Virus record (IMG/VR): IMGVR_UViG_3300027749_000112
Coordinates: 1,200 to 65,199 of that record
DNA length: 64,000 nucleotides
DNA from: a virus
Lineage: Duplodnaviria > Caudoviricetes
Strand: one strand, 5' to 3'
The position numbers were made by a program, and so were the translations under genes. Shown here piece by piece: positions 8,366 to 28,320 of the stretch. Position 1 is the stretch's first letter; each line of letters begins with the position of its first letter. Under the pieces are notes generated by a model, which saw only the letters and a list, made by a program, of their open reading frames with translations, did not search any database and was not told the DNA's origin.

Positions 8366-8381
8366 CGATCCCAAGGCCTAT

Positions 8382-8606: not shown

Positions 8607-8609
8607 GAC

Positions 8610-10123: not shown

Positions 10124-10127
10124 GGGA

Positions 10128-11138: not shown

Positions 11139-11893
11139 GGCGCGTAAATAAGTGGTTCCCAGCCGCCGAAGCCGCTGAGTAGATAGTTTTTCCTTACCAC
11201 AAAAGCGTCACCAACCTGAAAAAGTCGCACTCCTGAATAAAGCCAGTTGCGTTTCATATTGGCCCCTGAAGCGGGGATAGTTCCCAGAGCGCCGGCGCCG
11301 TTCACGTCAGGGGGATCGGTAGAAATATATCCCAGCGTCGAAACGAGATCAGCCGGCAGAGCGTCTTTGGCGAAAATATTCTCGTATGAATAGCTGGCCG
11401 TGCTTGCCAGATATGTTTCAACGCCATAGAGGGGCGAGATGTTATTGACTACCGTATTGCCATTGGCTTCCAGCCCCGTGCGACCTCCTCCGGCGCCGTC
11501 AGGATCCGTCTGTTTCCAGACAAGTGTGCCACCATCCCAGCTCTGAAGGTACTTGGAAATGAAATCATTGATTTTTGGGTGAGCCGTTATTGGCTCTTGC
11601 TGAGTCTCTCCATCGATCTCTAGTACTGGAAAATCTGCAGGGAAGAAGAGATCCTTTCTAGCGCTCTGATATGTCCAAACATAGTGCGCTACACCGTCAC
11701 GGAATTCGGCCTCAATATCTGTGAGCGGCATGCCAAAAGTTGAGTTTGGCACATAGCTCAACGCCACAGGGAGGTCGTCATTGAGTAGCTGGAAAGTGCC
11801 CAGCATGGTGGAGGTCGCGGTGTATCTATCCTGCTGATAATCCCCCAGCACAATGGAAGCAACCGGCGCTCCTGTTATGGTTTGAAGGCTCAT
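11135..11893 (-). CDS. tail tip/distal-tail-like protein
   Basis: Immediately downstream of tape measure; paralogous to 10128-11138. Confidence 0.6.
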   Translation of the reverse strand: MSLQTITGAPVASIVLGDYQQDRYTATSTMLGTFQLLNDDLPVALSYVPNSTFGMPLTDIEAEFRDGVAHYVWTYQSARKDLFFPADFPVLEIDGETQQEPITAHPKINDFISKYLQSWDGGTLVWKQTDPDGAGGGRTGLEANGNTVVNNISPLYGVETYLASTASYSYENIFAKDALPADLVSTLGYISTDPPDVNGAGALGTIPASGANMKRNWLYSGVRLFQVGDAFVVRKNYLLSGFGGWEPLIYAP

Positions 11894-13956: not shown

Positions 13957-14770
13957 ACCCCTTCGGCCTTTCGTCAACATTAGAAACAACCCTGCTCCAA
14001 TACTGCACATCTGCCTTGGCGTGGGCTAACTCAGGGGATATGCCCGGATGCTCAGCTAGAACTTCCTGTGCAATAGCATCGATGGATGCTGCTCGTTTTA
14101 CTAGGTGCCTCTCAAAGCGCATCTGATCAGTCGGCGTCCAGATTTCCGACTTACCTCCCTCCATCTGATAGAAGACCGTATTCATCCAATAAAGCTCACC
14201 GATGCCCATATTCCATGCTTCTTTGGATGAGCGGCCGGCGGACTTGCAGTAATAGGCAACAGCCTCTAGCGAGTCATCGATCTGACGGTCGGCCCCCTCG
14301 CCCATGGCAGCCTCTGCATTGGCTCCCCTTGCTTTATTCAGGTCGCCCTCGTCCTGAGTGATGGCGTAGAGGGCTTCGTAGGCTTCGGCAAGTCGCTGCT
14401 TCGATGTCGCGCAGGAACTCCAGAGCTTAGGCGGAGAGTAGTAATCGTTCAGATACTTCGTGAACTTAACCATCTCGCGATCCCACCTGGTTCCGATGTG
14501 GCAGATGTTCCACCATAATTGCCACCAACCAGGCATCTTTGCGGATGGCAGCTTGGCTGGATGAGGGTACTCGCTTTGGCACACTTGAACCGCAAGCCAG
14601 AGATCCCAGTTGCCGGCCCCGCCTAGGAGGATCTTAGAGTTTACCCATTCAAGCTGGAGCTTATGCCAGGACGAGAAAGCTTTGAGCCTCTTTCCTAGAA
14701 TCGCGTGGGACTGAGAGTGCAGAAAGGCTTCTGCAAACCTCTCATCAAAGAGGTAGGTACGCTCCTCCAT
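13949..14770 (-). CDS. putative tail assembly chaperone
   Basis: Position between tail tube and tape measure; EAWNMGIGELYW motif. Confidence 0.5.
   Translation of the reverse strand: MEERTYLFDERFAEAFLHSQSHAILGKRLKAFSSWHKLQLEWVNSKILLGGAGNWDLWLAVQVCQSEYPHPAKLPSAKMPGWWQLWWNICHIGTRWDREMVKFTKYLNDYYSPPKLWSSCATSKQRLAEAYEALYAITQDEGDLNKARGANAEAAMGEGADRQIDDSLEAVAYYCKSAGRSSKEAWNMGIGELYWMNTVFYQMEGGKSEIWTPTDQMRFERHLVKRAASIDAIAQEVLAEHPGISPELAHAKADVQYWSRVVSNVDERPKGYG
13954..13978 (-). promoter_or_regulatory. GTTGAC-N16-ATG motif
   Basis: GTTGAC GAAAGGCCGAAGGGGT ATG. Confidence 0.75.
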
Positions 14771-14779
14771 AAAGGAGGA

Positions 14780-15145
14780 TTAAGCACCACCGCCACCACC
14801 ACCACTACCACCGCCGGACTCGACTGCTTTTCCAGTAACGCTAGCTTTGGCGAAATCTTCAGCCGTAGCCTTGAGGTTGGAAGAAACGATCTTTCCAGAG
14901 ATTCCGGCAACGGTTATGGCGCCAGAAAGGGCCGGAGGCGCAAACGTGCTGACATATCCGGTGGCGGAAAGGGTTCCCACTTTCTTGCCAATTAGCATTG
15001 CCTTGAGTTCACCTTGGCCGTCCTTAGCCTGAACGATTGTCTTAAATTCGACTTCAGCCGATGACGACGTGACTTCGCTGAGGCCAGCTACGGTAGCCGT
15101 ATTGCCAACGGCCGCGCTTGTTCCTGCAATAGTAGTGAGAGCCAT
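14780..15145 (-). CDS. tail tube-like protein (paralog 2)
   Basis: 121 aa beta-rich; SATGY...EDFAKASVTG matches upstream SVTGY...EDFTKVTYEG. Confidence 0.6.
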   Translation of the reverse strand: MALTTIAGTSAAVGNTATVAGLSEVTSSSAEVEFKTIVQAKDGQGELKAMLIGKKVGTLSATGYVSTFAPPALSGAITVAGISGKIVSSNLKATAEDFAKASVTGKAVESGGGSGGGGGGA

Positions 15146-15149
15146 GAGA

Positions 15150-15521
15150 TTAGAGGGTAGGAGCGCCTAGTCCTTCGTAAGTGACCTTGGTGAAGTCTTC
15201 GTTGGACTGAGAGGTGCTGATTTTTGTTGGATAGATATTGCCAAGCCCAGCGACTGGGTGAGTGAAGGTGCCGGAAGAAGTTAGGTCGCCAAAAGCAGCG
15301 GTGGCGCTTCCGTATCCGGTAACAGATACCTTCTGGATTTCTCCGCCAATCAAGACATCATCAAGGGCGCCATCGGAAGTCATGTGATCGATTTGGATCG
15401 AATACTCGCGGTCGGCAGTGAACTCGATTACGTCAATGCCAGCGGGGCCGGTTGCGGTTGCTCCATTATTGACGCCAAAGGCCCAATTTTTAGTTCCGAG
15501 CTTAGAAATTGCAGTTGCCAT
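15150..15521 (-). CDS. tail tube-like protein (paralog 1)
   Basis: Start MATAISK after GTTGAC-N16; synteny after head-tail genes. Confidence 0.6.
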   Translation of the reverse strand: MATAISKLGTKNWAFGVNNGATATGPAGIDVIEFTADREYSIQIDHMTSDGALDDVLIGGEIQKVSVTGYGSATAAFGDLTSSGTFTHPVAGLGNIYPTKISTSQSNEDFTKVTYEGLGAPTL

Positions 15522-15543
15522 ACCTCTTGATGGGTTCGTCAAC
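15519..15543 (-). promoter_or_regulatory. GTTGAC-N16-ATG motif
   Basis: GTTGAC GAACCCATCAAGAGGT ATG. Confidence 0.75.
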
Positions 15544-15944
15544 TACAACGCTGACGCCCCAACCTTCAGCTCCAGGATCTCTGCGCGAGAACGGGACGCA
15601 ACCTCAGAGCGTTGTGCTGGGAAGGAGCTTCCATAGATCAGAAGGGTTGCGCTTTCGTAGCCATTTAGGGGCTCACCTGCAGTTGTGGCCCAATCATGCA
15701 GGATTCGCACTGCCCCCTGTGCCCATGACACAGGATAGCCGTCCACGGGAGCCACTACACGAAGCTCTAAAGAGACAAGGAAGCGTGACCCCCTAGGATC
15801 AGCATTGCCAGCAACGACGCTGACATAGCGATCTGGACGCTCGGCATCGGCGGCCCCAGCAAAGGTTGGAACATCGAGTATTCCAGCGTTATTCAGAAAT
15901 GCCGCCAACTCGCCCTCCAATGCAGCTCGTACATCAAGGCTCAT
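15543..15944 (-). CDS. putative tail terminator/completion protein
   Basis: 133 aa, synteny between head-tail joiner and tail tube. Confidence 0.5.
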   Translation of the reverse strand: MSLDVRAALEGELAAFLNNAGILDVPTFAGAADAERPDRYVSVVAGNADPRGSRFLVSLELRVVAPVDGYPVSWAQGAVRILHDWATTAGEPLNGYESATLLIYGSSFPAQRSEVASRSRAEILELKVGASAL

Positions 15945-16297
15945 TAGAATTCAGCTCTCCCAGTGCCGGCCGTGGACTCGCAATGGAGAGCGAGCGTGCT
16001 GCCAAGGTTCTTCATGAAGACGATACGGAAGACCCCTGGTGATGCCCCTAGATTGATCGTGACCGGCATCCCGACCGAAAGGCCTCCCCATGCGGCTCCT
16101 GCAGTCAGGTCGGAAAGGCGAACCTCTACCCGTAGGGACTCAGTACGCGAGATGCCTCCATATTGGTCTACCTGCTGCCCTTTGGATTCAGGAGACACAA
16201 CACCGGTCACTGCATGCGTGCCGACCAGGATGGCCTCTCCGCACTCAGCAAAGGCCGAGTCATCAGACAAGGCAAGGGCTGCATCGAAGGGGCTCAT
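15944..16297 (-). CDS. head-tail joining protein (gpFII-like)
   Basis: 117 aa, MSPFDAALA...FAECGEAI start, beta-rich; follows capsid gene. Confidence 0.6.
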   Translation of the reverse strand: MSPFDAALALSDDSAFAECGEAILVGTHAVTGVVSPESKGQQVDQYGGISRTESLRVEVRLSDLTAGAAWGGLSVGMPVTINLGASPGVFRIVFMKNLGSTLALHCESTAGTGRAEF

Positions 16298-16320
16298 ATT
16301 CTCTTACCCCTTTCGTCAAC
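16295..16320 (-). promoter_or_regulatory. GTTGAC-N17-ATG motif
   Basis: GTTGAC GAAAGGGGTAAGAGAAT ATG, just downstream of a terminator. Confidence 0.75.
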
Positions 16321-16327
16321 AGGCACG

Positions 16328-16361
16328 AAAAAGCCCTCCGGTTACTAGAACCAGAGGGCTT
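16328..16361 (-). terminator. rho-independent terminator after capsid/tRNA
   Basis: Minus strand GCCCTCTGGTT-CTAGT-AACCGGAGGGC followed by TTTTT. Confidence 0.8.
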
Positions 16362-16384
16362 AATCTATGCGACCTACACAAAAG

Positions 16385-16458
16385 TGACAGAGGTTGGATT
16401 TGAACCAACGGCCTTCACGGTATGAGCGTGACGAGCTACCAGGCTGCTCTACTCTGTG
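16385..16458 (-). tRNA. tRNA-Met(CAT), initiator-like body, no encoded CCA
   Basis: CACAGAGTAGAGCAGCCTGGTAGCTCGTCACGCTCATACCGTGAAGGCCGTTGGTTCAAATCCAACCTCTGTCA folds as a cloverleaf; C1:C72 mismatch, A11-U24, TTCAA T-loop. Confidence 0.9.
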
Positions 16459-16471
16459 TTAATTGTTCAGT

Positions 16472-17428
16472 TTAGGCCCACTGAGTACCGATCAGGTATC
16501 CAGCATTTGGGTTGATGATCTTGGTGACACGGTTGCTGCGAACGCGGATTTTGTCTCCACGGCGAGCCTCGTCACGATACTGATCAGTAGTGAAGAGACC
16601 GCCTTCGCTATCTCCGTCCCAGATGATCGTGCGACCAACACCGCCGGCCATGAAGTCTCCACCCTGGACATCTCCAAGGAACATGTAGTTATTGCCCCAG
16701 ACAGGGAGGATGTTCGTCTTGCCCTTAATGGCGTTGTCGTAAGTCTTGCGAGCCACGATGACGTTAGGGATGCCGAAAGCATCTCCGAGCACCTGAGTGG
16801 TGATATTCGATCCACCCTGAGTCGTGTTCAGGAAGCCATACAGATAGGTCTGCATGAGCTTGCTGCGCTTGATGCGGTTGAAGAGAGAGAGTGAGAGAAC
16901 AAGGGTGTTCGGGGTCTCACCAACGCTCGACAGGGACTCAAGAGCCGCATTGATGTCCTGGGGAACGTCAATGGTGTTCAGATTAGCCTCGGTGTATGCG
17001 ACCGAACCGTTGGTGGCCGTGAACTGAGAGGGATCCATGATCGTCTGAGCACAGGCAAGCTCGTAATCAAGCATCACCTTCTGCATGCAGAAATCTGCAG
17101 TGATCATCTCGGCGTCGAAGAAGTCTTTCATCTCCTTCTTAACCTTGTCGTCCACACGCTTCTCGTGGCCGTACTCAGAAGTCGTGTAGCTGTCCCACTC
17201 GAAGGACTCGTCGCTCTCGTTGTAAGTACCGGTAGCGTTGCGGAGCTGGCTCTGATTCTTCAGAAGCTCACCCTTGGCGATACGGAACTTAGGATAACGG
17301 CCGACTTCCTTTGGGCTGTCATAGACAGGGAGGAGGAGCTGACCGATATAGTGCTCTTTCTGATGCACGGCCTCCATGAGGAGAGTGCTGATGTCCTGAC
17401 GAGGTACTGAATCTGTTGTATTGAACAT
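16472..17428 (-). CDS. major capsid protein
   Basis: 318 aa after scaffold and decoration genes; TPNTLVLS, VWGNN, NPNAGYLI motifs of lambda GpE-like capsids. Confidence 0.85.
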   Translation of the reverse strand: MFNTTDSVPRQDISTLLMEAVHQKEHYIGQLLLPVYDSPKEVGRYPKFRIAKGELLKNQSQLRNATGTYNESDESFEWDSYTTSEYGHEKRVDDKVKKEMKDFFDAEMITADFCMQKVMLDYELACAQTIMDPSQFTATNGSVAYTEANLNTIDVPQDINAALESLSSVGETPNTLVLSLSLFNRIKRSKLMQTYLYGFLNTTQGGSNITTQVLGDAFGIPNVIVARKTYDNAIKGKTNILPVWGNNYMFLGDVQGGDFMAGGVGRTIIWDGDSEGGLFTTDQYRDEARRGDKIRVRSNRVTKIINPNAGYLIGTQWA

Positions 17429-17457
17429 TGTAGTGTTTTCCTAGTTGAGTTGATTGA

Positions 17458-17817
17458 TTAGATGAACAAGACGCGAATCTGGCCGCCTCCATTGCTGCCT
17501 GCAGGAGCGGACTCCCAGGCGATTGCGACCGAAGCACCAGTTGTCTTCTTGACAAGCGTTCCGTTGGCGGACTGCTCAAGCAGATCGCCGGATGCGATTG
17601 CCGTTGCGTTTCCGACCTGAGCGAAGGAAAGACCATTGGCTTTAGTGAGGAACACTGCGGCAGCAGCACCGGTGACGGCGCCACGGACAAGGGTTCCGAT
17701 GACTAGATCAGAAGCACCTGCGACATCGACGCCGGTAGCAGTGATCTTGAGGAGGACTCCCTCTTTCCCCGAAAGGTCAGAAGCAGCGATTGCAGAAACA
17801 ACAGTATTGTAGTTCAT
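17458..17817 (-). CDS. head decoration/capsid cement protein
   Basis: 119 aa Ala/Gly-rich, AIASGDLLEQSANG...AIAWESA...IRVL; between scaffold and capsid. Confidence 0.75.
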   Translation of the reverse strand: MNYNTVVSAIAASDLSGKEGVLLKITATGVDVAGASDLVIGTLVRGAVTGAAAAVFLTKANGLSFAQVGNATAIASGDLLEQSANGTLVKKTTGASVAIAWESAPAGSNGGGQIRVLFI

Positions 17818-17841
17818 GGTTTTTTTATTTGGGGTTGAGGA

Positions 17842-19146
17842 TTAGAGAGAACGGCCTTCGTTCTTCATGGAGAGATACTTGGCGTGGGCCTCGGGGCTCT
17901 CCTTGTGAGCGAGGCGGATTGCCTCGGCTGCGGTTTTGCCGTTCGCTTTATGCTTAATGACAGTCTTCTCGAACTCGGTGATGTCCTCGTTGGAGTTGCT
18001 GAAAACAGCTTCTCCAGTTGCAGAGAATGCAACGGGGCGGGTTCCGGTACGAAGGGCGTGGGCCTGGGCGTCGCAACGAGTTGCGAGCTTGGCATTCAGC
18101 TCTTTGAGTGAGGCGTTCTCGCTGGAAAGCTCGGTGAGCTTGCCTTCGATGGCGGCGAAATGATGCTCGATGAGTGCGTTCTCACTTGCGGCGTCTTCGC
18201 GATCGAAGCGGGAAGAGAGTTCACGAACTGCACCTTGGAGGGCGGAGAACTCACCGGAAGCTGCACCAACTGCGGCGCCTGCTTCGGCTGGAGCACCTTC
18301 ACCTTCTGCAGCCTCTTCGGCTGGAGTCTCGGACTCTTCGTGACCATTGAGAGCTTCGGCCTGGAGGCCGTGGATGCCAGCAGCGTCCTCTTCGGAGATG
18401 TGACCCTCCTGGACAAGCGTGGCGATCTGCTCATGAGTGAGGGTCAGAAGATCCTCAATGGTGATGTCTTCGTCCTGCTCGTTCTGCTCATCCTGGGGAG
18501 CCTCTTGCAAGGCCTCCTGAAGCTGGGCGTTGAGTTGCTCCTGCGCTTCAAGGCGGCCCTGAAGAGAGGTGAGTTGCGCGAGCACGTCCTGGAGGGAGGG
18601 CTCGGCTTGGATAGCTGGGTTGTTAGTAGTGCTCATGTGAGTTTCATTTAGGTGTGACGTGTCAACGGAGGAGCTGAATACCGCCTCCAGTAATCCGTTC
18701 GGATTCGCAGCGGGATTCGCCACGACATCCACGGAAATTAGCTCCTTACAACGAGCGGCCGTCTTGCCGTCAGCCCTCTTCTCATCATCGCCCATGAAGG
18801 CGGCAGAGAGGCCGATGCACTCAGGCATACGGGTAGCAAGTTCAATGGCCTGCTCGTATTGGGCGTGTGATTTGAGGAGATGCCAGTCACCCAAGAGGCG
18901 GTTGCCCTCGATGTGGAAATCCGAGAGGTAGCCGCAAACTGCGTCGGCTCCGCTCCGGTGATTCCACTTGACCGGCACCTTACCCATCTTCTGGGCGCAT
19001 TCCTTGAGCTGAGTCAGCGTCTTCATGTCCACTTCGAGGTCATGCCCTCGTGCCGTAACGCCGCCCGTTATGATCGATACGTCATGGATGACGCCTGAGA
19101 GGGAATCAACACGACCAATAAGCTGCTGAAAAAACTTTGCTTCCAT
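17842..19146 (-). CDS. prohead protease fused to scaffolding domain
   Basis: VKWNH (His), IGLSAAF (Ser), SVDVVANPAANP (Asp); acidic coiled-coil C-terminus; start MEAKFF after GTTGAC-N16; possible internal start MSTTNN at 18636. Confidence 0.8.
   Translation of the reverse strand: MEAKFFQQLIGRVDSLSGVIHDVSIITGGVTARGHDLEVDMKTLTQLKECAQKMGKVPVKWNHRSGADAVCGYLSDFHIEGNRLLGDWHLLKSHAQYEQAIELATRMPECIGLSAAFMGDDEKRADGKTAARCKELISVDVVANPAANPNGLLEAVFSSSVDTSHLNETHMSTTNNPAIQAEPSLQDVLAQLTSLQGRLEAQEQLNAQLQEALQEAPQDEQNEQDEDITIEDLLTLTHEQIATLVQEGHISEEDAAGIHGLQAEALNGHEESETPAEEAAEGEGAPAEAGAAVGAASGEFSALQGAVRELSSRFDREDAASENALIEHHFAAIEGKLTELSSENASLKELNAKLATRCDAQAHALRTGTRPVAFSATGEAVFSNSNEDITEFEKTVIKHKANGKTAAEAIRLAHKESPEAHAKYLSMKNEGRSL
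18634..18666 (-). promoter_or_regulatory. GTTGAC motif upstream of internal scaffold start
   Basis: GTTGAC at 18666-18661, in-frame ATG (MSTTNN) 24 nt later. Confidence 0.55.
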
Positions 19147-19168
19147 GCCCAAAGGGGCATGCGTCAAC
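19144..19168 (-). promoter_or_regulatory. GTTGAC-N16-ATG motif
   Basis: GTTGAC GCATGCCCCTTTGGGC ATG. Confidence 0.75.
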
Positions 19169-19181
19169 TGGCTACCCAGCG

Positions 19182-19730
19182 CTAGGACTGGTTACTAAGC
19201 GCCCGCTTGAGCGCGCTATGGTGATGAATGGCGTCGGCAAGCTCTCCAATAGCGGTGCCTACTAATGCAGGTGCGATCGGATTGCCTACCGGTGCTCCAA
19301 GCACGGCTCCGGCACCGGCCCCAATGTACTTCCCAGCATTGCGCTTTAGGTGCGCTGCAACTCCCTCTCCTTTCTTGAGGCGAACCATAACATCATTGCC
19401 TAGCGTACCGGCTTCAATGCCATCATAGGCCTTAGCAAACTCCTTGGCCTCGCATTTAGCCGAAAGCTCTACGAGAAGCCGCAGGAAGTCATTGCCCATC
19501 ATGGTCGAGGATCCAGGTGAACTATTCGGCACTGTAGTTTCGACGCCACGGGCGACATTGCCTTTGCGGCGGATCCTATCCATTACCGGCGAGACTTGGG
19601 ATTGCTCCACCTGTTTACGCTGCTGGATGATGGCTGGATTGTAGGCTGCCTGCATGGTGCCCGACCCGATACCATCACCGGCTTCTGGGGAGAACTGACC
19701 TTCGGGGTTGCGGGGGCGGGAATCAGCCAT
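19182..19730 (-). CDS. putative internal head (cargo) protein with glycine zipper
   Basis: N-terminal RPRNPEGQF, LVELSAKCEAKEFA motif, GAGAGAVLGA glycine zipper. Confidence 0.65.
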   Translation of the reverse strand: MADSRPRNPEGQFSPEAGDGIGSGTMQAAYNPAIIQQRKQVEQSQVSPVMDRIRRKGNVARGVETTVPNSSPGSSTMMGNDFLRLLVELSAKCEAKEFAKAYDGIEAGTLGNDVMVRLKKGEGVAAHLKRNAGKYIGAGAGAVLGAPVGNPIAPALVGTAIGELADAIHHHSALKRALSNQS

Positions 19731-19756
19731 GGCAGTATGTTTGCTGGAATTGGAAA

Positions 19757-21013
19757 TTAGATGGCTGCGGCGACCTTGCCGGCGCCAGCGATGAATCCCT
19801 TAATACGAGAGGCTAGGCCTCCAACCTTCCTGCCGGCGACGTTGCCGAACTTTCCGGCTGCGGCAGCATTGGTCGATTCGCTCGCGATACCTGGATAAGA
19901 GGCGGGATTAAGGCCGGCTCCGAAACCGGATTTCACGTCTTTTCCAAAAGCTCCGTAAGCGTCAGATGTTTTTCCGCCAATTACGCCGTAAGAGTTCTTG
20001 ATCGCATTGTTCGCAAGGGCGGCGCCTCCAACCACTCCGCCGGCAACTGCCACATCAGCGGCAAGCCCCGTAGGGTTGGCCTCTGTCTTCACTCCTGCGA
20101 ATTGGCCGTTAGGGTTGTATGAAGGCACCTGCTTGGTCGGGCTAAAGAAGCCAAGCTCGATCTTACGGGACAGCTCGGTTGCGCGGTCGAGCGCGGATAG
20201 TAAATGCTTATTGTCGCGGATCTCTTGCGCTGACCATTTGCGAAGGGAGCGCATGTGCGCTTCAGCGTCTTCTGTCAGGTGATGGCCTGGAGCGCCAGCG
20301 GAAGTCCCCCAAAACTTGTTCATTGCCTTGCGCACATTCTTGGCGTTACCGCGAAGAGCTGGAGTTGTCGTTCCCTCCACCCCGATATTGGCGAGGAGAG
20401 AGCCCTCGTGGGTGATTGGGATGATCTTTTTTAGCGCAGGGATGGCGAAGTCTCCCCGAGCAAGCTCTTTAGCGCGGTCGAGGGCGGACAGATTGGTTTG
20501 ATCCTGATTATCGGCGATACGCTTGCGGTTGGATTCCCGTGCCCACTTGTATCCTCCGGCCGTACCTAAACCAATGCCAGCCAATCCGCCAATGACCGCG
20601 CCTTTGAGGGCGCGATTTTGAATTATCATCGGGGAAAGCATCAAGTCGCGCCCTGCTCGTTTTGCAAGTTTTTGCTCGATACCATGAGCCGCATAAGAGG
20701 CGCCGGCTCCTATGCCCGCTCCTACTTGGGAGCCAGCAATTATGCCGACATTTTGTTTTGTTCCATCAGTAAACGCATCTCGCTTGCGGTAAACCTGACC
20801 AGCCGCCCTGGCCTCGCCGGCGTTTTTTAAAGACACGGGAATCGCCGCTGGGCCACCCCCAATAGTCATATTGATGCCAACTGCTCGGGCCGAATTTCCT
20901 TCAGGAGTCTGACCCTTTTGGCGGGCAAGCTCTTGGGCTGTGATGGGAATGCCGGAAAATTCTTTAGTAGTGCAACGGGCGGAAAGTTCGACAAGGCGTT
21001 GAATGGGATTCAT
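19757..21013 (-). CDS. putative internal head (cargo) polyprotein with glycine zippers
   Basis: Start MNPIQRLVELSARCTTKEFS after GTTGAC-N16; LSALDRAxEL twice; three Gly/Ala hydrophobic segments. Confidence 0.7.
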   Translation of the reverse strand: MNPIQRLVELSARCTTKEFSGIPITAQELARQKGQTPEGNSARAVGINMTIGGGPAAIPVSLKNAGEARAAGQVYRKRDAFTDGTKQNVGIIAGSQVGAGIGAGASYAAHGIEQKLAKRAGRDLMLSPMIIQNRALKGAVIGGLAGIGLGTAGGYKWARESNRKRIADNQDQTNLSALDRAKELARGDFAIPALKKIIPITHEGSLLANIGVEGTTTPALRGNAKNVRKAMNKFWGTSAGAPGHHLTEDAEAHMRSLRKWSAQEIRDNKHLLSALDRATELSRKIELGFFSPTKQVPSYNPNGQFAGVKTEANPTGLAADVAVAGGVVGGAALANNAIKNSYGVIGGKTSDAYGAFGKDVKSGFGAGLNPASYPGIASESTNAAAAGKFGNVAGRKVGGLASRIKGFIAGAGKVAAAI

Positions 21014-21035
21014 ACCCAACCGCCGGCCCGTCAAC
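21011..21035 (-). promoter_or_regulatory. GTTGAC-N16-ATG motif
   Basis: GTTGAC GGGCCGGCGGTTGGGT ATG. Confidence 0.75.
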
Positions 21036-21481
21036 TAGGTTGCGAACCTCTTCCTGAAGTAATAGACATCGCTACCAACGTACTTCACGGGAGGTGCGTA
21101 GAGCTTAAATCCGCATGTGATGAGAGAATTCGCAGAGGCAAGATTCCAATCCATGGCATAGGTGACGATTGCCTTGAATCCCATCCTGGTTGCCATATTG
21201 ATGCGCGACTTGATCAGCTTCTTCTGGATGCCATTGCCTCGATGGGCCTTCAGGACGCCAGAGCGAACCATGTAGGCCATGTCCTTATGGCAATCCATGA
21301 CTGCGGCCCTCATGGCGGCATAGGCTATTGCTTTGCCGTCATCGTCACGGGCTATCCACCACCAAGAATCCTTGAGATCAACTTTGGGGGATCCTGCAAA
21401 GATGATCTTATCAAGGCGTACTACCTCCTTCTGCACCGATGCCGGCATGTGATCGGGTGATGCTTCGCATCGGATCTTCAT
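21035..21481 (-). CDS. GNAT family N-acetyltransferase
   Basis: SGVLKAHRGNGIQKKLI (motif A) and NLASANSLITCGF (motif B). Confidence 0.85.
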   Translation of the reverse strand: MKIRCEASPDHMPASVQKEVVRLDKIIFAGSPKVDLKDSWWWIARDDDGKAIAYAAMRAAVMDCHKDMAYMVRSGVLKAHRGNGIQKKLIKSRINMATRMGFKAIVTYAMDWNLASANSLITCGFKLYAPPVKYVGSDVYYFRKRFAT

Positions 21482-21505
21482 GGCGGCAAAGAGATGTAAG
21501 CAAAA

Positions 21506-21757
21506 TCACTTGAGGCGAAAGAAAGATGTCATTCGCCCTTTCTGCTTCTCAGTGCGCATCTCAACCAATCCTAATTGAACCTTTCGTCGTAAACGCTTAT
21601 CAACTGAATCCCTCGTAGACCCTTCCGCTGCAGCAACGGCAGTTGATGTGAACCATCCATCGTCAGCCATTTCATCTTGGCTAACGCCACCTATCTCTCT
21701 CGCTAAAGCGGAAAGGGCGGACTCTCTTATTTCATGCGCGGATGGGCGTGGTTTCAT
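21506..21757 (-). CDS. small winged-HTH-like protein
   Basis: Start MKPRPSA; GWFTSTAVAAAEGSTRDSVDKRLRRKVQLGLVE. Confidence 0.55.
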   Translation of the reverse strand: MKPRPSAHEIRESALSALAREIGGVSQDEMADDGWFTSTAVAAAEGSTRDSVDKRLRRKVQLGLVEMRTEKQKGRMTSFFRLK

Positions 21758-22565
21758 TGGGCGTGTAGGTAATAGGAATGACTGCTGGCAATCCGCCTTC
21801 TGGGGTGGCTGACCAATCCAGCATGGTGACTCCACAAGAGCAGATGGAATCGCCCACGACCTTGTGGCCGTAGCGGGTTAGCACCTGCCAAGCCGGCGTG
21901 ACGATAAAGAGCCCCCTGCCGTCAGAGTAGTGACCACCCGTATGGCGATGGCCTCTTGCATAGACCTGAGGGACGCGATGCCCGGATCTAGCATAGTTCT
22001 GGCGAGCATTGCCCATGGTGATGGACATGGCGCCTGCCTCTAGGTACGCCCTTGAAGAGGTAGCCATGTGATGGGCGACATCGATCAATGTGCCGTTCAC
22101 CTCGATTAGGGCCTTGTCGCCGCACCATTCACCCTTGAGCTGGGCACAGATCATCTTCTCGAAGTCGCCAACATGACACTCTGTACCCGCGATGAAGAAA
22201 CGTCGCGTGGCTGCCGCTGCAAGTTTTGAAAGTAAAACTACCGCAGCGGCCGCATGTTCGGTGTTCTTGGAAACCACGATTTCCGTTGTGCCATGATGCC
22301 GACCCTCCAGAAGGTCTCCATTGCAGATGAGGTAGAAGGGGCGACCTGCAAAGTGACTGAGAACTTTCTCTTCCATGTCTTGCCAGCAATCCCACAGCCA
22401 GCGCTGATGGAGATTGTTCCCTATACCAACGGTGTTGCCGGTATCGGTTTCGCAGTTATCGGGCCAGACAGCGACGGCGCTACCGCAATGGGTATCAGAG
22501 ATAAAGACTACCCCTGGCTGTTGATGGATTTTGGAAATTTCGACTACAGCCTTCTTTTTTTTCAT
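21732..22565 (-). CDS. calcineurin-like metallophosphoesterase
   Basis: ISDTHCG, NGDLLEG, GTECH, AHH, GHRH motifs. Confidence 0.85.
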   Translation of the reverse strand: MKKKKAVVEISKIHQQPGVVFISDTHCGSAVAVWPDNCETDTGNTVGIGNNLHQRWLWDCWQDMEEKVLSHFAGRPFYLICNGDLLEGRHHGTTEIVVSKNTEHAAAAVVLLSKLAAAATRRFFIAGTECHVGDFEKMICAQLKGEWCGDKALIEVNGTLIDVAHHMATSSRAYLEAGAMSITMGNARQNYARSGHRVPQVYARGHRHTGGHYSDGRGLFIVTPAWQVLTRYGHKVVGDSICSCGVTMLDWSATPEGGLPAVIPITYTPNETTPIRA

Positions 22566-22599
22566 AAAAATTAGGGTGCAGTCTTATTTTTATCAGCTT

Positions 22600-25500
22600 C
22601 TAGGCTATCTCTCGCTCAACGATATGCAGTCCCTTGCGGCGAATTTCTTCAACGGCATCTCCGTGATGTCCGGTGGGGTAAGAAGTAGATTGATACCTAG
22701 GCCCTTTTGCAGCGGCGGCAACGGGCTTCCCTTTGAGATCGAAGATCCCTTTTCCTGCATTCTTGAAAGGATTGATCGGGAGGCCTGCGTGTGCGCGTGC
22801 TCCAACGATGCCTGCGCCAACACCGGCGGCTCCAACAGCGCCAGCGGCAACCTTTAGAAGAAGCTCGCGGTTCTCCTTTTTCTCATGCCAATCCTTTTCA
22901 CGACGAACTCGAGGCCTGGAGCCTGGAGCGAAAACTCGGGCGCTACGGCCGCGAGGGTCGCGAACATCCCATCCATTGTATTCGGCCCACTGATCAAAAA
23001 GCCTGACTCCGTACTTCTTTCCGAGATCGTCGGCTTTCTTGACTAGCGGTAAGATATGTTTGCGGCCAACTGCGGTGTCCTTAGTCACTTTAGCTGCTCC
23101 GTATAGAGCGGCAGCCCCAGCGGCAGCGCCTACTGTATTCTTGAACCAAGCCTTCTCCCACTCACGTTTGCGGGGGCGACCGGCTGCATCGCGATCGCGT
23201 GGGTTACCAGCAATGACAGATGTGGCGTCACCCACGATTCCCGAGCCTCGACCGCCCCAGCGGTGGATGGCCTTTCCTTGGTTGTAAAATCCCTGAATGG
23301 ATTGACGCACAGGGACTGCAGTTCCCGCATCGTCATCAAGCCCTAGCTTCTCTCGGACAGGATTACGCCATCTGCCTTGAGAGTTTCGGGTCTGGTCAGA
23401 ATAACCGAATTCTTTGAGTAATCCCTGAACCTGAGATTGAAAAGTCTTGGGTTTTTGCTCTTGGATCGCATTCACGGTATCCACTTCCTGCCCCTCATCG
23501 GCAGCGTGCGTTCCGCCTATGATTGCTCCTGCTCCAGCACCGGAAAGTGCCGCTGCTGGAAGCGATGCATTCTTTACGAAAGCTGCTGGGCGCCAGGTCT
23601 TAGCTAGACTGCCAAGATTCAAGCCCGCTGCTTTTGCAATACGAGGAGCCTTGCGGGCCGCCAAGACGCCGGCGGTTCCGAGAACTCCACCGGCAATAGC
23701 TCCGCCAAGGGCAGCACGTTTCATGATAGGTGCCCCCTCTCCCTCTTGGGGATGCCCAAGGATTTGTGTTCCAATCGCTGTCCCGCCACCAGCTAGGGCT
23801 CCTCCTAGCAATGCTCCCTTACCAATGCTCGCCGCCGTACCCGCAAGAGTTGAACCAATCTTTAGTCCAGGGATCGCTCCAAGGACTACTCCTGATCCTG
23901 CGCCTAGAAGGGCTGCCTTGAGGGCTGGATGGATGTTTGTTTTAGGGTCAGCCTTCTCGATGGCCGCAAATAGCTTGGCCTTCTTGGCCGCAAGGATGGC
24001 AGCCGCTGCTGCTCCACCTGCTGCGGGCACGGTCTCTGCGGTCTTGGCCCAACGAGGGCGGTCTCCGTAAATGTCACGCTTGTGGTCGGTAACGGCGCGC
24101 ACACCGAGCACTGATGCCCCGCCTGCGGCAGCTCCAAGGGCTGCTCGGATACCAATCCCTAATTTCTTAGACGGCACCAGGGCTCCTGTAACTGCGCCAG
24201 CTACACCAGCGTTGCGCATATTGTGATCGCGACGATCAAGGTCAGACTCACGGATCTGCTTGATAAAGCGATCATGAGCCACGCGCCCATTGAGTGGAAT
24301 TCCATCCTCGTCCGTCTGGAGCGAGAATTCATTTAGCTCTGGAATCATTGGTGAGTTGTCGCTTGGGCAGAACACAACCTGTTGCTGAACTCGGTGATAG
24401 GACTTTTCAAATCCGCACTGAGGGCAGTAATAAACACGGGAGCGAGAAAACTCCTTGAGCTGGGCCTTGAGATTGGCCGAGAGAGCCCACTTTGGGCGGG
24501 TTTTTAGCTGCTCGACCGGCGCATTGAATCCAGAGACAAACGATTGCTTGGCGTTCTTGATTCGGGTCATCAGAGAATCGCCTGGCTTACTAAGCGGGGT
24601 TGCGGCTAGTCCTGCCTTCCATCCAGCATGGGTTTCCTTTGCCGTGTTTACGGGATCCAAGATGTTATGGACGGCTCCCTTGGCACTCTTGTAGAGCTTG
24701 CCCATATCAGAAGATGGGGCGACGGCATGGGCCGCCTGCTCTCCGGTCACCTTCAAATGGGAGGCAGCAAGGGTGGCTTGATCGAGGGCCGCATTGACTT
24801 TGCTGGAGATGGCAGGTGCATGCTCACGAACCGCAGATGTTATTGCCTTGGCAGCACCGCGAGCTTTGAACCCTGCGTACCCTGCGGCACCGAGAACGCC
24901 AAGGCCGCCAGCCAGAAGGGCACCGTCGCGAGCCTTGGAGAGGCCATCACGCTTTTCGCGGATCACGGTATCAAATTCGGTAGGGGCTGCGTTGGCTTCC
25001 TTCCAGCGGGCATGGGCGGATTTGAACTTTTCCTTCTCACCCTTGGTAAGGTTGGGGTTTTTGGCGATCTCACGAATGTCCTTGGCGTAGGCCTTACCCT
25101 TAGCCTTGAAAGCTCCCTTGGCTTCTTTAGCGGCCTGCGCTTGGGCCTCTTGCACTACACCCTCGCGGGCGATCTTAGCATTGCGCTGTGCGGTGACTAC
25201 GCGATTGACGGCGTTGCGAGCTGTCTCGTTCCTCGCGGCTTTGCCGGCCACGCCTCGTAGGGCGAGAGCCCCAATCCCTGCACCTGCTGCGATGCCAGCA
25301 CCTAGGATGCCTGTCTTGATAAACTCCCGACGCTCGCTGGAGTCGGGCTGAGTTGCATAATCGTGAGGGAGCTGAAAGTTCTTCAAGGCCATACCCAAGG
25401 TCGGGTGCGTCAACGCGCCTTCTAACCACTTGGTTAGGCCAAGGGTTTTCCTTCCTTTGTTGGTGCTCTCAATCGTTCCTGAGATCAATTTGCCGATCCG

Positions 25501-26154
25501 CGCGCCGATGGGCATTGATTTATCTGGAGCCTTCGGCCCCAGTAACTGCTTGCTATAAGCCGTAAATTCTTCACCGGCCAACTTGGCTACGGTATCGGCA
25601 GTGCCGCCACGGCGCTGCTGGAGGATGCTATGGACGATCTCGTGCCGCCTCAGTGCCTTTCGGGCTACTGATGGGTTTGCATACGATCTGACGACTCGTC
25701 CAACAGACCCTGTAGAATCTGACAGCTTACTCGTCGGGGAGAGATTGATGATGCCGCCCCTTGCGATGTTCTTAGGCTTAACTCCGGCTGCACCTGCCGC
25801 ATCGATGTAGTAACTTCGCAGGGAGTTGCCAGACTTGGCAGAAGCCTTTTTAACATTTTTCTGAACATCGGATGGGTTTAGGTAGGACGCTAATTTATCA
25901 GCACGGGTTTCATCAAGAATCCCAGGGCGAATATACCCGTCTGGCAGCATGCCCGCAAACTCTTTCGCCGGCCGTTGGTAGATATGAACAAGCCTTGATG
26001 CTTCCTCTCTCAACTTGGGCGTCACGCTGTATGGAACATCTGGATTAAATCGAATGTCATGAATCTTGATGGCCTCATGTTCGGCAAGGCCCCTGACGCT
26101 TTTGGCATACTTAAATGCGATTTCGTGAGCCTTCTGCAGAGGAGTGATCTTCAT
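22600..26154 (-). CDS. 1184-aa basic, modular internal head polyprotein (HExxH segment, Zn ribbon, several glycine zippers)
   Basis: Directly after portal; RRHEIVH; CPQC...CPSD; repeated xEF/xLF/xNF junction motifs; internal GTTGAC-N16-ATG at 25392. Confidence 0.75.
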   Translation of the reverse strand: MKITPLQKAHEIAFKYAKSVRGLAEHEAIKIHDIRFNPDVPYSVTPKLREEASRLVHIYQRPAKEFAGMLPDGYIRPGILDETRADKLASYLNPSDVQKNVKKASAKSGNSLRSYYIDAAGAAGVKPKNIARGGIINLSPTSKLSDSTGSVGRVVRSYANPSVARKALRRHEIVHSILQQRRGGTADTVAKLAGEEFTAYSKQLLGPKAPDKSMPIGARIGKLISGTIESTNKGRKTLGLTKWLEGALTHPTLGMALKNFQLPHDYATQPDSSERREFIKTGILGAGIAAGAGIGALALRGVAGKAARNETARNAVNRVVTAQRNAKIAREGVVQEAQAQAAKEAKGAFKAKGKAYAKDIREIAKNPNLTKGEKEKFKSAHARWKEANAAPTEFDTVIREKRDGLSKARDGALLAGGLGVLGAAGYAGFKARGAAKAITSAVREHAPAISSKVNAALDQATLAASHLKVTGEQAAHAVAPSSDMGKLYKSAKGAVHNILDPVNTAKETHAGWKAGLAATPLSKPGDSLMTRIKNAKQSFVSGFNAPVEQLKTRPKWALSANLKAQLKEFSRSRVYYCPQCGFEKSYHRVQQQVVFCPSDNSPMIPELNEFSLQTDEDGIPLNGRVAHDRFIKQIRESDLDRRDHNMRNAGVAGAVTGALVPSKKLGIGIRAALGAAAGGASVLGVRAVTDHKRDIYGDRPRWAKTAETVPAAGGAAAAAILAAKKAKLFAAIEKADPKTNIHPALKAALLGAGSGVVLGAIPGLKIGSTLAGTAASIGKGALLGGALAGGGTAIGTQILGHPQEGEGAPIMKRAALGGAIAGGVLGTAGVLAARKAPRIAKAAGLNLGSLAKTWRPAAFVKNASLPAAALSGAGAGAIIGGTHAADEGQEVDTVNAIQEQKPKTFQSQVQGLLKEFGYSDQTRNSQGRWRNPVREKLGLDDDAGTAVPVRQSIQGFYNQGKAIHRWGGRGSGIVGDATSVIAGNPRDRDAAGRPRKREWEKAWFKNTVGAAAGAAALYGAAKVTKDTAVGRKHILPLVKKADDLGKKYGVRLFDQWAEYNGWDVRDPRGRSARVFAPGSRPRVRREKDWHEKKENRELLLKVAAGAVGAAGVGAGIVGARAHAGLPINPFKNAGKGIFDLKGKPVAAAAKGPRYQSTSYPTGHHGDAVEEIRRKGLHIVEREIA
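25390..25414 (-). promoter_or_regulatory. intragenic GTTGAC-N16-ATG motif
   Basis: GTTGAC GCACCCGACCTTGGGT ATG, in frame within the 1184-aa gene. Confidence 0.7.
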
Positions 26155-27902
26155 TTCACTTTAGGCGTCTTGGATGGCATGGTCGGTGCTGGGGCGACCG
26201 GCTGGGGAGTGGGCTCATCTGGCACCATCTTCTCAACCTCGGACTTCTTGAGGCCGTAGAGCTGGATGATGGAGGCGACCGCACTTGCTCGATCCATCTT
26301 GCCTTCACCAACTTGCTTGAGGATCTCCAGGAGGGGCTTGGCGTCCACCTGAGCTTCGACAAGACCGGCAGGGGGAGCTGGAGGTGGCTCGTTCATGGCC
26401 GCAAGGAGTTGGGAAGGGTTGTTGAGGCGGTTGGTGAGGAGTTCGATCGGAACGCCTGTCTCAGATGCCACCTGCTGCATGTAGGTGATCTCGCTGGCAG
26501 ATTTGCGGACGACTTTCTCAAACGTGCTGCCTCTCTCTGCGATGATGTCGCTGGCATTGATGATGCCGGCCGACAGCTCCTGCATTTTGGCGGCCATGTC
26601 GTTGCCATAGTCGCCAGTGAGGGTGGCACCAAAGGCCCAGCGGCCTTTCTTCCAAAGGGGGTGAGATGGCAGGATGCCGGCAGCGATAGCGCTTCCCAGT
26701 ACCGTATTGCGGACAGGGTTGAGCCATGTGCGAGAGATGAGGTTTTGGTTGCGGACGATGCCGCGCATGGCTTGCGCTACCTCGATGCGGCTGCCATGGC
26801 CTCCTAGTTCGGAGATGTCGTGCAGGAAGCCGTAGGGATACCCGTTCTGTGTACCAGCGCAGATTTCCCTGATCATCGTCTGCACGAGCGAGAGGAAGGC
26901 TCCATTTGGCCGGTTGGTTCCAGGTGCAAACTGTACCTCGTCGCCTTGGTTGAGCCGCAAGACTTTGGCGATCTCCATGCTGATCGTGCCAGGGCCAGCA
27001 TTTGGCGTGTTGCCAGGAGAGCCAGGGGTTGCCCCACCCGTCACGCCATTCCAGGCGTTGGGATCCGACATGTTATAGGGATCAGCCTGACGCACAAAGC
27101 CAGCATGCCCCACTTGCCATTTAGCAGCTTGCTTCTCGGCCTCGTAGATTTCGTAGAGGTCGCGCGCTGGCGCAATGGCAGTCGCAAGTGCTGTCACGCC
27201 GCGATACTGATCTACTCGCTGGGGATCCATCAGGTGCAGGAACTGAGCCGCCGGCACGTCGCGATCAAATGTGTACTGAGATGTAAGCCTGTTCCTGTTG
27301 TAGATCGAATACTCCGTAGGCGCTCCATTGTCGTCGATCGTGATCCCTCCGATCTTGTTCTTCTCCGTCGTCTCGGCAGGGTTGAGTACGTTACCAATGC
27401 GATCAGCCTCGATCGGCTGGATGCGGACAGATCGAGCGTCGCTCGGATCGACGTTCAGCATGTTCCAGCCGTGGTCGCCATCCACAAGCTGTGACCAGAA
27501 CCCCATCCAGCAGAGTTCGGAGAGGGAATGCCGGCCGGTTATGTCGGCGGCCTCGGCCCATTCCGCCATGTAGTCCTGATAGATGCCATCGATCGTATCG
27601 TCGCCGGTCGAGGAGACATACTGAACTTGATCGACGGTATACTGGACGATCTTGGAGACGATCCCCTTTAGGAGGCCGAAGTTGCGGACGACATCACGGG
27701 CATCCCACATGAGCAAGACGCGATCCCGATTGGAGCGCCGGTTCTCGGGAGAGCCATTCTTAGAGGCGCCCCCTGAGTAGCCACGCTTGACGCCAGGGGT
27801 AGCGGCATCATAGCCAAACATCTTCAGGCGTTGGCGAGCCATGACCCTACCAACAGCGGCTTCGGGGTTAAAAACTGCGACGGCGCGATCGAGAAAATTC
27901 AT
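26151..27902 (-). CDS. portal protein, lambda family
   Basis: GYDAA, ARDVVRN, IEADRI, HLMDPQRVDQYRGV motifs. Confidence 0.92.
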   Translation of the reverse strand: MNFLDRAVAVFNPEAAVGRVMARQRLKMFGYDAATPGVKRGYSGGASKNGSPENRRSNRDRVLLMWDARDVVRNFGLLKGIVSKIVQYTVDQVQYVSSTGDDTIDGIYQDYMAEWAEAADITGRHSLSELCWMGFWSQLVDGDHGWNMLNVDPSDARSVRIQPIEADRIGNVLNPAETTEKNKIGGITIDDNGAPTEYSIYNRNRLTSQYTFDRDVPAAQFLHLMDPQRVDQYRGVTALATAIAPARDLYEIYEAEKQAAKWQVGHAGFVRQADPYNMSDPNAWNGVTGGATPGSPGNTPNAGPGTISMEIAKVLRLNQGDEVQFAPGTNRPNGAFLSLVQTMIREICAGTQNGYPYGFLHDISELGGHGSRIEVAQAMRGIVRNQNLISRTWLNPVRNTVLGSAIAAGILPSHPLWKKGRWAFGATLTGDYGNDMAAKMQELSAGIINASDIIAERGSTFEKVVRKSASEITYMQQVASETGVPIELLTNRLNNPSQLLAAMNEPPPAPPAGLVEAQVDAKPLLEILKQVGEGKMDRASAVASIIQLYGLKKSEVEKMVPDEPTPQPVAPAPTMPSKTPKVK

Positions 27903-28147
27903 CAGTTGATTCCGTTGGAAAAGTCAGGGACGGCGTAGTTAGGGGATCCTCTGAAGCGCCACTCATTCCGCACCCTGGTAGCGGCATGGAGGCGGTTCGT
28001 GACCAGCATCAGATCCTTGGTGTGGGACTTCTCACCGACCGACTGAGAAGTATAAAGGGTTGCCTGTTGCTTCAGCAGAGTGATCTCTGCCTGCAACTCC
28101 TCACCGGAATACTGCCGGTAAATTTCCATCCATTCGGTCGATGCCAT
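27902..28147 (-). CDS. head completion protein (gpW-like)
   Basis: 81 aa just upstream of portal, YTSQSVGEKSHT hairpin between helices; start MASTEW after GTTGAC-N16. Confidence 0.65.
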   Translation of the reverse strand: MASTEWMEIYRQYSGEELQAEITLLKQQATLYTSQSVGEKSHTKDLMLVTNRLHAATRVRNEWRFRGSPNYAVPDFSNGIN

Positions 28148-28169
28148 ACTTGCAACACCGGCAGTCAAC
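28145..28169 (-). promoter_or_regulatory. GTTGAC-N16-ATG motif
   Basis: GTTGAC TGCCGGTGTTGCAAGT ATG. Confidence 0.75.
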
Positions 28170-28190
28170 GGACGGACGAGAAAACCGGAC

Positions 28191-28320
28191 GGATCGGCCG
28201 GCCGATCCCGGCTCCTGGGGGAGATTCTTCCTGGGAACACCGAAAATGTTAGGCCGGCCCTGGCACCACCTTTTTACTGCGGATGAGGTGATATACATAC
28301 TTAGGAATAAGTATGTATAT
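28191..28320. repeat. two perfect inverted repeats
   Basis: GGATCGGCCGGCCGATCC (28191-28208) and ATATACATACTTA-GGAA-TAAGTATGTATAT (28291-28320). Confidence 0.85.

Follow-up and report, generated by a model that had tools for sequence, protein, structure and literature searches.

The prohead protease gp21 of phage T4 cuts after the glutamate of an (L/I)-x-E motif. Capsid-targeting leaders of 10–20 residues are removed by gp21 in this phage, and in phiKZ and SPN3US the head-internal proteins and the portal are cut at one short motif, often at multiple sites, by a gp21-like protease (both according to passages of PMC5694885). In 80alpha, an N-terminal motif common to non-homologous phage proteins is cut between Phe and Ala by the host protease Prp (passages of PMC5744158), and the polyvalent proteins, encoded next to the portal, combine many unrelated domains in one chain and are predicted to be co-delivered with the DNA (Iyer, Burroughs, Anand, de Souza and Aravind 2017; passages of PMC5512222). 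Here we describe a junction element in a single viral record (IMGVR_UViG_3300027749_000112, 65,199 bases, rated 100% complete), of which the window, the whole stretch of DNA analysed, comprises 64,000 bases. The element ends in Phe or Leu and recurs at the module borders of three basic proteins, Q (1184 amino acids, aa), B and C, whose genes lie between those of a lambda-family portal and of a 441-aa protein in which a protease is fused to a scaffold-like tail. This junction feature is real, statistically strong and previously unannotated. The mechanistic reading of the sequence, that the junction sites are cut by the prohead protease and that Q, B and C would be head-internal cargo polyproteins, is coherent but unproven, and it is the one towards which we lean with modest confidence.

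Most likely, the locus encodes a cargo system of the T4 kind with new features, namely a leader ending in Phe or Leu, internal repeats of this leader (up to ten modules) and a link to the polyvalent proteins, the latter because homologs of Q carry InPase and DUF6321. As in T4 (IPI-III and Alt), short N-terminal leaders are common to unrelated, putatively head-internal proteins, the cargo is basic, the protease has the same fold, and the motif is also present in proteins of the scaffold or core (T4 features from passages of PMC5694885). However, the P1 residue would here be the Phe or Leu that follows a longer, helix-like element, the internal proteins of T4 are small products of separate genes whereas the leaders here recur within 1184 aa (2052 aa in relatives), and the protease is fused to a scaffold and matches no Pfam protease family. 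With phiKZ and SPN3US the locus has in common that many putative head-internal proteins and the portal share one short candidate protease motif; these, in contrast, are jumbo myoviruses, their motifs are of the AxE/SxE type and their propeptides are long, while the present genome has 65 kb and Phe/Leu-based sites, and its leaders separate putative functional modules, not just discarded propeptides. A cut after Phe before a small residue, as it may occur here, is the likeness to 80alpha, but the sites of 80alpha are N-terminal only, and Prp is a cysteine protease of the host that is linked to ribosomal protein L27, whereas this phage has its own gp21-fold protease. Like the polyvalent proteins, Q is multi-domain and portal-adjacent and has an HExxH module, and its homologs carry the InPase named in PMC5512222 (PF18823) together with DUF6321; Q itself, however, has no Pfam match, and its borders carry a leader that is also found in portal and scaffold and is independent of the HExxH module. 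The word 'linker' is absent from the text of PMC5512222 and no junction motif is described in the passages covered; a limited literature search found no description of the junction element.

The junction element at the module borders of Q, B and C

Q consists of ten putative modules with nine x-x-F/small sites between them (Table 1; a slash marks the junction throughout). The nine tetrapeptides picked out in Q by the initial annotation are all present (at residues 64, 258, 392, 567, 608, 727, 903, 914 and 1051), and so is its HExxH segment (HEIVH, Q 171–175); the "Zn ribbon" reported with them is found as CPQC...FCPSD at Q 570–610, but this holds a CxxC and only one further Cys, with His/Asp neighbours. 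The isoelectric point (pI) is 10.2 for Q and B and 9.3 for C, and Gly+Ala make up 26–30% of these proteins. Their glycine-zipper character, likewise pointed out initially, is reflected in uncharged Gly/Ala stretches of 16–28 aa (nine in Q, five in B and three in C) and in 78 matches to [GAS]xxx[GAS]xxx[GAS] in Q. These stretches are long enough for spanning or embedding in a membrane, and membrane activity is a putative property of the proteins.

The pattern of the initial annotation occurs nine times in Q compared with 2.08 times in shuffles, and a strict motif, K[EQMNTL]F[SAGDQ], six times compared with 0.27; none of 500 shuffles reached the observed value for either pattern, so that the motif in Q is commoner than chance. 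Among the 104 greedy open reading frame (ORF) calls that served as the genome set for motif counts, the strict motif has 11 matches, nine of which are located in Q (six), B, C and the portal. The codons at 11 sites in Q, B and C vary (GAG TTT, GAA TTT, GAA TTC, AAC TTT and others), and conservation therefore acts at the protein level. A cause at the DNA level, be it a shared restriction site, a cloning artefact or a recombination hotspot, was ruled out by these differing codons, with GAATTC at only two of the 11 sites. For comparison, 80 related loci were kept, of which 33 contain portal and protease and 30 of these are unique. In an unbiased count of 3-mers in the cargo ORFs of the 30 loci, IEF, KEF and EFA exceed the composition 9.7-, 6.8- and 4.5-fold and rank second, third and fifth. 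The strict motif is found 1.33 times per 1000 aa in the protease/scaffold proteins of the related loci, 0.81 times in cargo and 0.31 times in other ORFs; the low rate in portals (0.05) arises because the residues before the portal Phe vary.

The sites coincide with the positions at which relatives of Q are rearranged. The set of 42 non-identical Q homologs (759–2052 aa, all metagenomic) covers Q partially and in changed order, with segments re-ordered, duplicated and inserted, several unrelated domains and an architecture that is variable among relatives. Internal BLASTP segment ends lie at most eight residues from one of the nine motif Phe in 116 of 217 cases, whereas chance gives 27.0 for random positions (maximum 90 in 5000 draws) and 12.8 for nine of the other 18 Phe (maximum 24). 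Among 50 unique clean insertions from all Q- and B-family pairs, Phe plus a small or polar residue lies no more than seven aa from the left edge in 38 cases, from the right edge in 33 and from both edges in 28, against chance values of 11.1, 11.0 and 2.4 (maximum 10 for both edges in 2000 draws). A swapping of modules at the motif, which the initial annotation had proposed to look for in homologs, is apparent in both counts. In two exact cases, AKKAKLF/ASRPSE of P0006 corresponds to AKKAKLF/ARGDYVR...RRPKKEF/ASRPSE of P0011, and IKEL/GLLTKN of P0167 to IKEL/ADKEK...NKEF/GLLTKN of P0166; the mobile unit therefore starts directly after Phe/Leu and ends with its own x-E-F. Homologs also show insertions exactly after KAKLF/ (the end of Q module 5), the CPQC mini-module is relocated (q567–611 aligns with s192–235 of P0003, and q564–617 with s110–163 of P0009), and module 1 is in duplicate in P0002, P0004 and P0013.

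The most widely kept part of the Q family is formed by modules 8–9, including GWDVRDPRGRSARVFAPGSRPR; the most distant homologs have only q913–1118 in common, with 59–69% identity over q1041–1118, and module 0 is not covered by any homolog in the set, except for its last ~15 residues. InPase (PF18823, E 3e-42 to 7.5e-45) and/or DUF6321 was detected in five of five Q homologs scanned, whereas for Q itself no Pfam match was obtained, even at E ≤10 on modules 1 and 8–9, and a sequence search of the PDB gave no match. The piece GWDVRDPRGRSARVFAPGSRPR (22888–23034, Q aa 1041–1089) is the best conserved across the Q family, and a string resembling it, RPRNxxGQF/SPE, is present at the N-terminus of C (aa 1–13, 19692–19730) and at that of its relatives; strings of this kind may be a second, non-helical site class or an anchoring motif.

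A longer element, [LF]SAx[LD]RxL-K-E-[FL]/small, terminates in the motif; it is probably helical and comprises 12–20 residues. In the homologs, 152 unique instances of the strict motif have Leu at −3 and −6/−7 and Ala/Ser at −9, as in LSAKLRGLKEF/G, and the residue after Phe is Ala in 44, Ser in 40, Gly in 33, Asp in 24 and Gln in 11 of them, these five being all that the search pattern allowed. The B family has the element in the form LSAKDRLKEL/A or RLxELSxxxxxxKEF/. B is composed of a 19-aa leader, MNPIQRLVELSARCTTKEF/, and three modules, split at LSALDRAKEL/ARGDF and LSALDRATELSRKIELGFF/SPTKQ, and C of an N-terminal module, the element LLVELSAKCEAKEF/ and a C-terminal Gly-zipper module; C has weak matches to glycine-zipper families (TIGR03789, E 0.0015, far under its cut-off), and its homolog in the related contig L003 consists of the N-terminal half only. 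The motifs initially listed for B and C, LVELSARCTTKEFS, LVELSAKCEAKEFA and two copies of LSALDRAxEL, are all there, but the second B junction had been misplaced: it is KEL/ARGDF and not after GDF, judging from relatives that begin the same module straight after a leader. An exhaustive HMMER search yielded 31 relatives of B (108–668 aa), which carry one, two or three B modules, and the three modules are found separately among them. In 18 of 32 B-family proteins the element is located in the first 45 residues as an N-terminal leader, e.g., MNHVNRLIELSSKCKEF/AGIPITAQ, MNLKTQLRELAARSEQIKEL/ARGDYAIPALKK and MNNPYAVRRLTELSRKIEMGVF/SPTKQ, and the modules behind these leaders are the three that follow internal element copies in B. 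Since the element alone heads small single-module relatives, the long proteins look like leader-plus-module fusions. In the 30 related loci, 9 of 76 ORFs of the cargo region have the core [LIVMF]xEL[SA] within their first 40 aa, compared with 2 of the 325 remaining ORFs. When a position-specific scoring matrix (PSSM) built from Q homologs was applied to B and C, their KEF sites stayed below 8 bits; the parts upstream of these sites are the 'LxELS' variant of the element.

The scaffold-fused protease and the portal N-terminus

An AlphaFold2 (AF2) model of the N-terminal 185 residues of the 441-aa protein, built with 35 homologs, reached a predicted local distance difference test score (pLDDT) of 75.9, with residues 1–16 and 162–185 disordered (pLDDT <50). 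VIA-align superimposed it on T4 gp21 with Z 11.7 (root-mean-square deviation 3.3 Å, 130 residues aligned) and on herpesvirus proteases with Z 6–8, and the best Foldseek matches were herpesvirus proteases and T4 gp21 (prob 1.00, E about 2e-3). His42, His70, His101 and Ser121 are invariant in the homologs. Judging from the model, the 441-aa protein really has a gp21/assemblin-fold protease, in which His70 and Ser121 may be catalytic, and its initial assignment as the prohead protease is supported by fold, by the Z score with gp21 and by these two invariant residues. The rest of the protein is scaffold-like and acidic (pI 4.8 for the whole protein). Phe sites are located in its disordered parts (KFF13/Q and EAVF164/S), the tail contains the element-like FSALQGAVRELSSRF, and the scaffold tails of homologs have conserved AAVKEF/AKSFG, LKEF/A or VRMF/S. 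The motif had also been claimed for the protease/scaffold; Phe sites are indeed conserved in the homologs, but in this phage the pattern of the initial annotation is at chance (1 observed, 1.33 expected).

The protein had no Pfam, NCBIfam or PHROG match, Mu-like_Pro (PF10123) had no match in the genome, no precomputed Pfam domain was present among the 120 listed protease homologs, and a PDB sequence search gave a chance-level match only (E 0.092). At least 522 members of the family are encoded on viral contigs, and the clade is so far known from contigs only; the proteins form a sequence family of gp21-fold proteases that is missed by Pfam, NCBIfam and PHROGs. In the phage collection, the protease of locus L041 had only 26–29% matches, to unannotated Bacteroides and Phocaeicola phage proteins, and the capsid protein only 22–26% matches, partly in Mu-like Burkholderia phages. 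A complex prediction of protease residues 17–165 with Q 548–590 (score 0.03, mark 0.32) provided no evidence either way.

The N-terminal ~29 residues of the portal end in RQRLKMF/GYDAA (Phe29, codon 27816–27818), a putative leader cleavage site. This is the best non-Q match in the genome (13.7 bits, with a matrix trained on other phages only), and FLDRA..SPEA..RR..AR..L-x-x-F/x-YDAA is kept in the portal N-termini of the 30 related loci; both results agree with the initial suggestion that the portal N-terminus contains the same type of site. Lambda-family portals accompanied by ClpP or S49 proteases have IKA-YEAA or ILA-YEAA, without Phe. In lambda itself, gpB of the same portal family, MAFFT puts LREYA/GY over LKMFG-Y of our portal, and a 22-aa portal leader is annotated in the lambda record at the aligned place, but this alignment is weak, with 14% identity over the stretch, and the lambda protease is an S49 peptidase. 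The portal ORF has 733–1073 aa, compared with 583 aa here, in nine loci (L053, L057, L060, L068, L071, L072, L075, L078 and L079), which suggests, as far as the sequences go, that cargo domains were fused onto the portal itself in one branch of the clade.

Cleavage, docking and other readings of the element

From gene position, composition and analogy we infer packaging, cleavage and ejection of the three proteins. By means of the leader, and alongside the acidic scaffold, in which a similar helix is present, the cargo would enter the procapsid during its assembly; the scaffold-fused gp21/assemblin-fold protease would then cut after Phe or Leu. Q might thereby be cut into about ten pieces, B into the leader and three modules, and C into two or three pieces, and the portal N-terminus and the scaffold might be trimmed by the same protease; the "about 15" products of the initial annotation are close to the ~17 pieces that cutting at every site would yield (Q 10, B 4, C 3). 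The basic Gly/Ala-zipper pieces, the zincin-like module and the pyrophosphatase module of relatives would remain beside the DNA inside the head and pass into the host upon infection, perhaps as membrane-active or anti-host effectors. A more specific version is that a portable leader, approximately M-x3-6-L-x-E-L-S-x5-8-K-E-F/, serves as procapsid ticket and as cut site of the gp21-fold protease, and that the clade strung such units into effector polyproteins; we regard this as possible and put it forward tentatively.

Several observations weigh against cleavage of packaged polyproteins. No cultured relative was found in the phage collection (megablast of 16000–28000; tblastn of Q, the protease and the L053 protease). 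The strict and leader patterns were set after seeing the data, the alignment-end and insertion counts come from related homologs and are thus not independent events, and the portal match alone is modest, since a shuffled proteome is expected to give ~0.34 matches at or above 12 bits. No motif match is present in the major capsid protein, the 119-aa head protein is also without motif, the phage's own protease/scaffold is at chance, as mentioned above, and the large cargo proteins of more distant loci carry just 0–3 copies. Segment ends also recur away from the motif, at q439–443 (11), q1094–1103 (15) and q1127–1133 (10), the border from module 1 to InPase is without motif in several homologs, and module 1 begins with an invariant KEFAG-x-x-P-x-GY, so that the motif could there belong to the fold.

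The element could instead be a docking or packaging helix only, on proteins that stay intact like 'beads on a string', with Phe/Leu as a contact residue and not as P1. This would suit its length and amphipathic appearance, its resemblance to the scaffold-tail helix FSALQGAVRELSSRF and the finding that the 80alpha scaffold's N-terminal sequence is required for assembly while its cleavage is not (passages of PMC5744158). However, insertions and deletions break exactly after Phe/Leu, which fits a scissile bond better than a binding helix, the next residue is restricted to small or acidic types (although the five types were all that the search pattern allowed), a gp21-fold protease is fused to the scaffold, and the 11-aa spacer between two sites (Q 906–916) has no obvious docking use. 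We therefore consider docking alone rather unlikely.

If the sites are cut, the enzyme might be another one, i.e., the zincin-like HExxH module within the polyprotein or a host protease such as Prp. Module 1 has HEIVH and a Glu-Glu pair 20–21 residues past the second His, and H111, E112, E135 and E136 are invariant in alignment A3. Its AF2 model has a pLDDT of 82.6, and the motif sites lie in lower-confidence flanks of the core (model residues 1–10 with a mean pLDDT of 66; 185–191 and 197–205 below 50). With VIA-align, Z did not exceed 5.5, and YbeY (5.5), SPRTN (5.1), ArdC (4.5) and Wss1 (4.3) were found amid unrelated helical and membrane-helix proteins; Foldseek against the PDB had no match at E ≤0.001, and ESM Atlas scores were 0.78 or less, among them an LPD23 cluster (0.75) that is a lead only. 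Plausibly, module 1 is a small zincin like the MPTase of Iyer et al. An MPTase domain has been proposed to process polyvalent proteins into units (passages of PMC5512222), and the Phe/Ala cut of Prp in the 80alpha capsid and scaffold proteins (passages of PMC5744158) would match the sites described here. The distribution of the sites, however, does not follow the HExxH module, which is present in 13 of 42 Q homologs, while 28 have no HExxH at all and 16 of these keep 3–7 strict motifs; some second copies of module 1 have lost the second His, and B, C, the portal and the scaffolds have sites but no HExxH. Sites also persist in branches whose scanned large cargo has Peptidase_S74 (chaperone of endosialidase) as its only peptidase domain, and the Prp gene (PF04327) had no match in this genome. 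A different cutting enzyme thus appears unlikely.

We also asked whether the punctuation is a general property of InPase-bearing polyvalent proteins, and rejected this on one control: in the Rhizobium phage RHph_TM3_14A (L090, MN988472; cultured, temperate), the 2307-aa InPase-bearing protein (1906–13353) is without KEF punctuation and unenriched (1 match, 0.37 expected), and its 18-kb locus has no relative of the 441-aa protease or of the portal. In the same phage, an N-acyltransferase gene lies ~4 kb upstream of the InPase protein, echoing the GNAT gene beside Q. Because homologs without HExxH, B, C, portals and scaffolds keep the sites and the Rhizobium control lacks the motif, the motif is found to travel with the gp21-fold protease and not with the zincin or InPase domain.

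A last reading is that the element lacks any processing or targeting role and is the conserved end of a module, or a linker that favours recombination, in proteins that are perhaps not virion proteins. It agrees with evidence that is all comparative, with counts inflated by relatedness and with a motif belonging to the invariant start of module 1, but is quite unlikely: recombination on DNA identity is improbable because codons differ between sites; the element heads non-homologous modules and forms the extreme N-terminus of small proteins, where there is nothing to link; it also occurs in portal and scaffold; and the interval from portal to protease holds these genes in 27 of 30 unique loci (being empty in the other three).

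Gene order of the locus and significance of the leaders

The late module is encoded on the minus strand, from 28240 down to ~800, in the order portal, cargo, protease, capsid and tail genes (Table 1). According to the initial annotation, three basic proteins lie between portal and protease; they are basic and so positioned, but they are not contiguous, as three unrelated genes, for a 277-aa, a 109-aa and a GNAT protein, intervene. These three genes are missing from L003, in which a short B of 180 aa directly adjoins the Q homolog and a counterpart of C's N-terminal half and the protease come next, and the strict motif is absent from their products; they are an insertion outside the motif system. 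By eye, the 277-aa ORF shows phosphoesterase-like DxH / GD / GH motifs, without Pfam or PDB sequence support, and Pfam at E ≤10 gave nothing meaningful for the 277-aa and 109-aa ORFs. Q, B, C and the 277-aa, 109-aa and 441-aa proteins had no Pfam or NCBIfam match above cut-off and no PHROG of known function. In the related loci the gap between portal and protease ranges from zero to ~8 kb and is filled by Gly/Ala-rich proteins, with DUF6321 in two of seven large gap proteins scanned.

A tRNA-Met (CAT) gene is located between the major capsid gene and the following head-tail gene (16384–16458, minus strand). Ten proteins of the tail and connector regions (5747–15944 and 27902–28240) had no PHROG match at E ≤0.001; among them is a 706-aa Ala/Gly-rich putative tape-measure protein. 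The large terminase (41607–43463; GpA ATPase, PF05876, E 7.1e-56, plus a nuclease domain) does not adjoin the portal but is ~13.7 kb away from it, with a plus-strand gene block (~28.5–40.4 kb) in between, and a D5-like primase/helicase (D5_N, DUF5906, BT4734-like N domain) and a PIF1-like helicase are encoded on the minus strand at 48270–52536.

Table 1. Genes of the head region and modules of Q, with positions in the window
Feature	Position	Strand	Remarks
112-aa ORF		minus	first of late module, before portal
Portal protein, lambda family, 583 aa	26151–27902	minus	PF05136, E 8.9e-45
Q, basic modular protein, 1184 aa	22600–26154	minus	ORF; start overlaps portal stop
Q module 0 (aa 1–66)	25957–26154	minus	ends PAKEF
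Q module 1 (aa 67–260)	25375–25956	minus	HEIVH, zincin-like signature; ends ALKNF
Q module 2 (aa 261–394)	24973–25374	minus	one uncharged Gly/Ala stretch; ends APTEF
Q module 3 (aa 395–569)	24448–24972	minus	terminal junction element KWALSANLKAQLKEF, best-scoring, PSSM 19.6 bits
Q module 4 (aa 570–610)	24325–24447	minus	41-aa CPQC...H...CPxD mini-module; flanks KEF/S, NEF/S
Q modules 5 and 6 (aa 611–729, 730–905)	23440–24324	minus	seven uncharged Gly/Ala stretches; ends KAKLF, KPKTF
Q aa 906–1184	22603–23439	minus	11-aa spacer (end LLKEF) followed by modules 8 and 9
277-aa ORF	21732–22565	minus	between Q and B
109-aa ORF	21506–21835	minus	between Q and B
GNAT acetyltransferase, 148 aa	21035–21481	minus	PF00583
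B, 418 aa	19757–21013	minus	425 aa if upstream TTG start
C, 182 aa	19182–19730	minus	
Prohead protease + scaffold-like tail, 441 aa	17842–19167	minus	protease aa ~19–151, about 18715–19113
119-aa head protein + 318-aa major capsid protein	16472–17817	minus	phrog_673, E 8e-09; phrog_1005, E 1.1e-34
Major capsid gene	16472–17428	minus	phrog_1005

If the portable leader works as procapsid ticket and cut site, the insertion of a unit behind any Phe would be enough to bring in, duplicate or exchange cargo, head loading would be modular and programmable, and polyvalent proteins would have a processing route other than the proposed self-cleaving metallopeptidase. Should the leaders be cut and target their cargo, they would offer a tag, short and transferable, with which capsids other than that of T4 could be loaded with foreign proteins, and a testable answer to the splitting of polyvalent proteins, by the head protease at leader junctions and not by their own peptidase. 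They would also provide a sequence rule that flags packaged and injected proteins in uncultured phages, and with such a rule a pool of unannotated effectors (Gly-zipper peptides, the zincin-like module, pyrophosphatase and DUF6321) may become recognisable from sequence.

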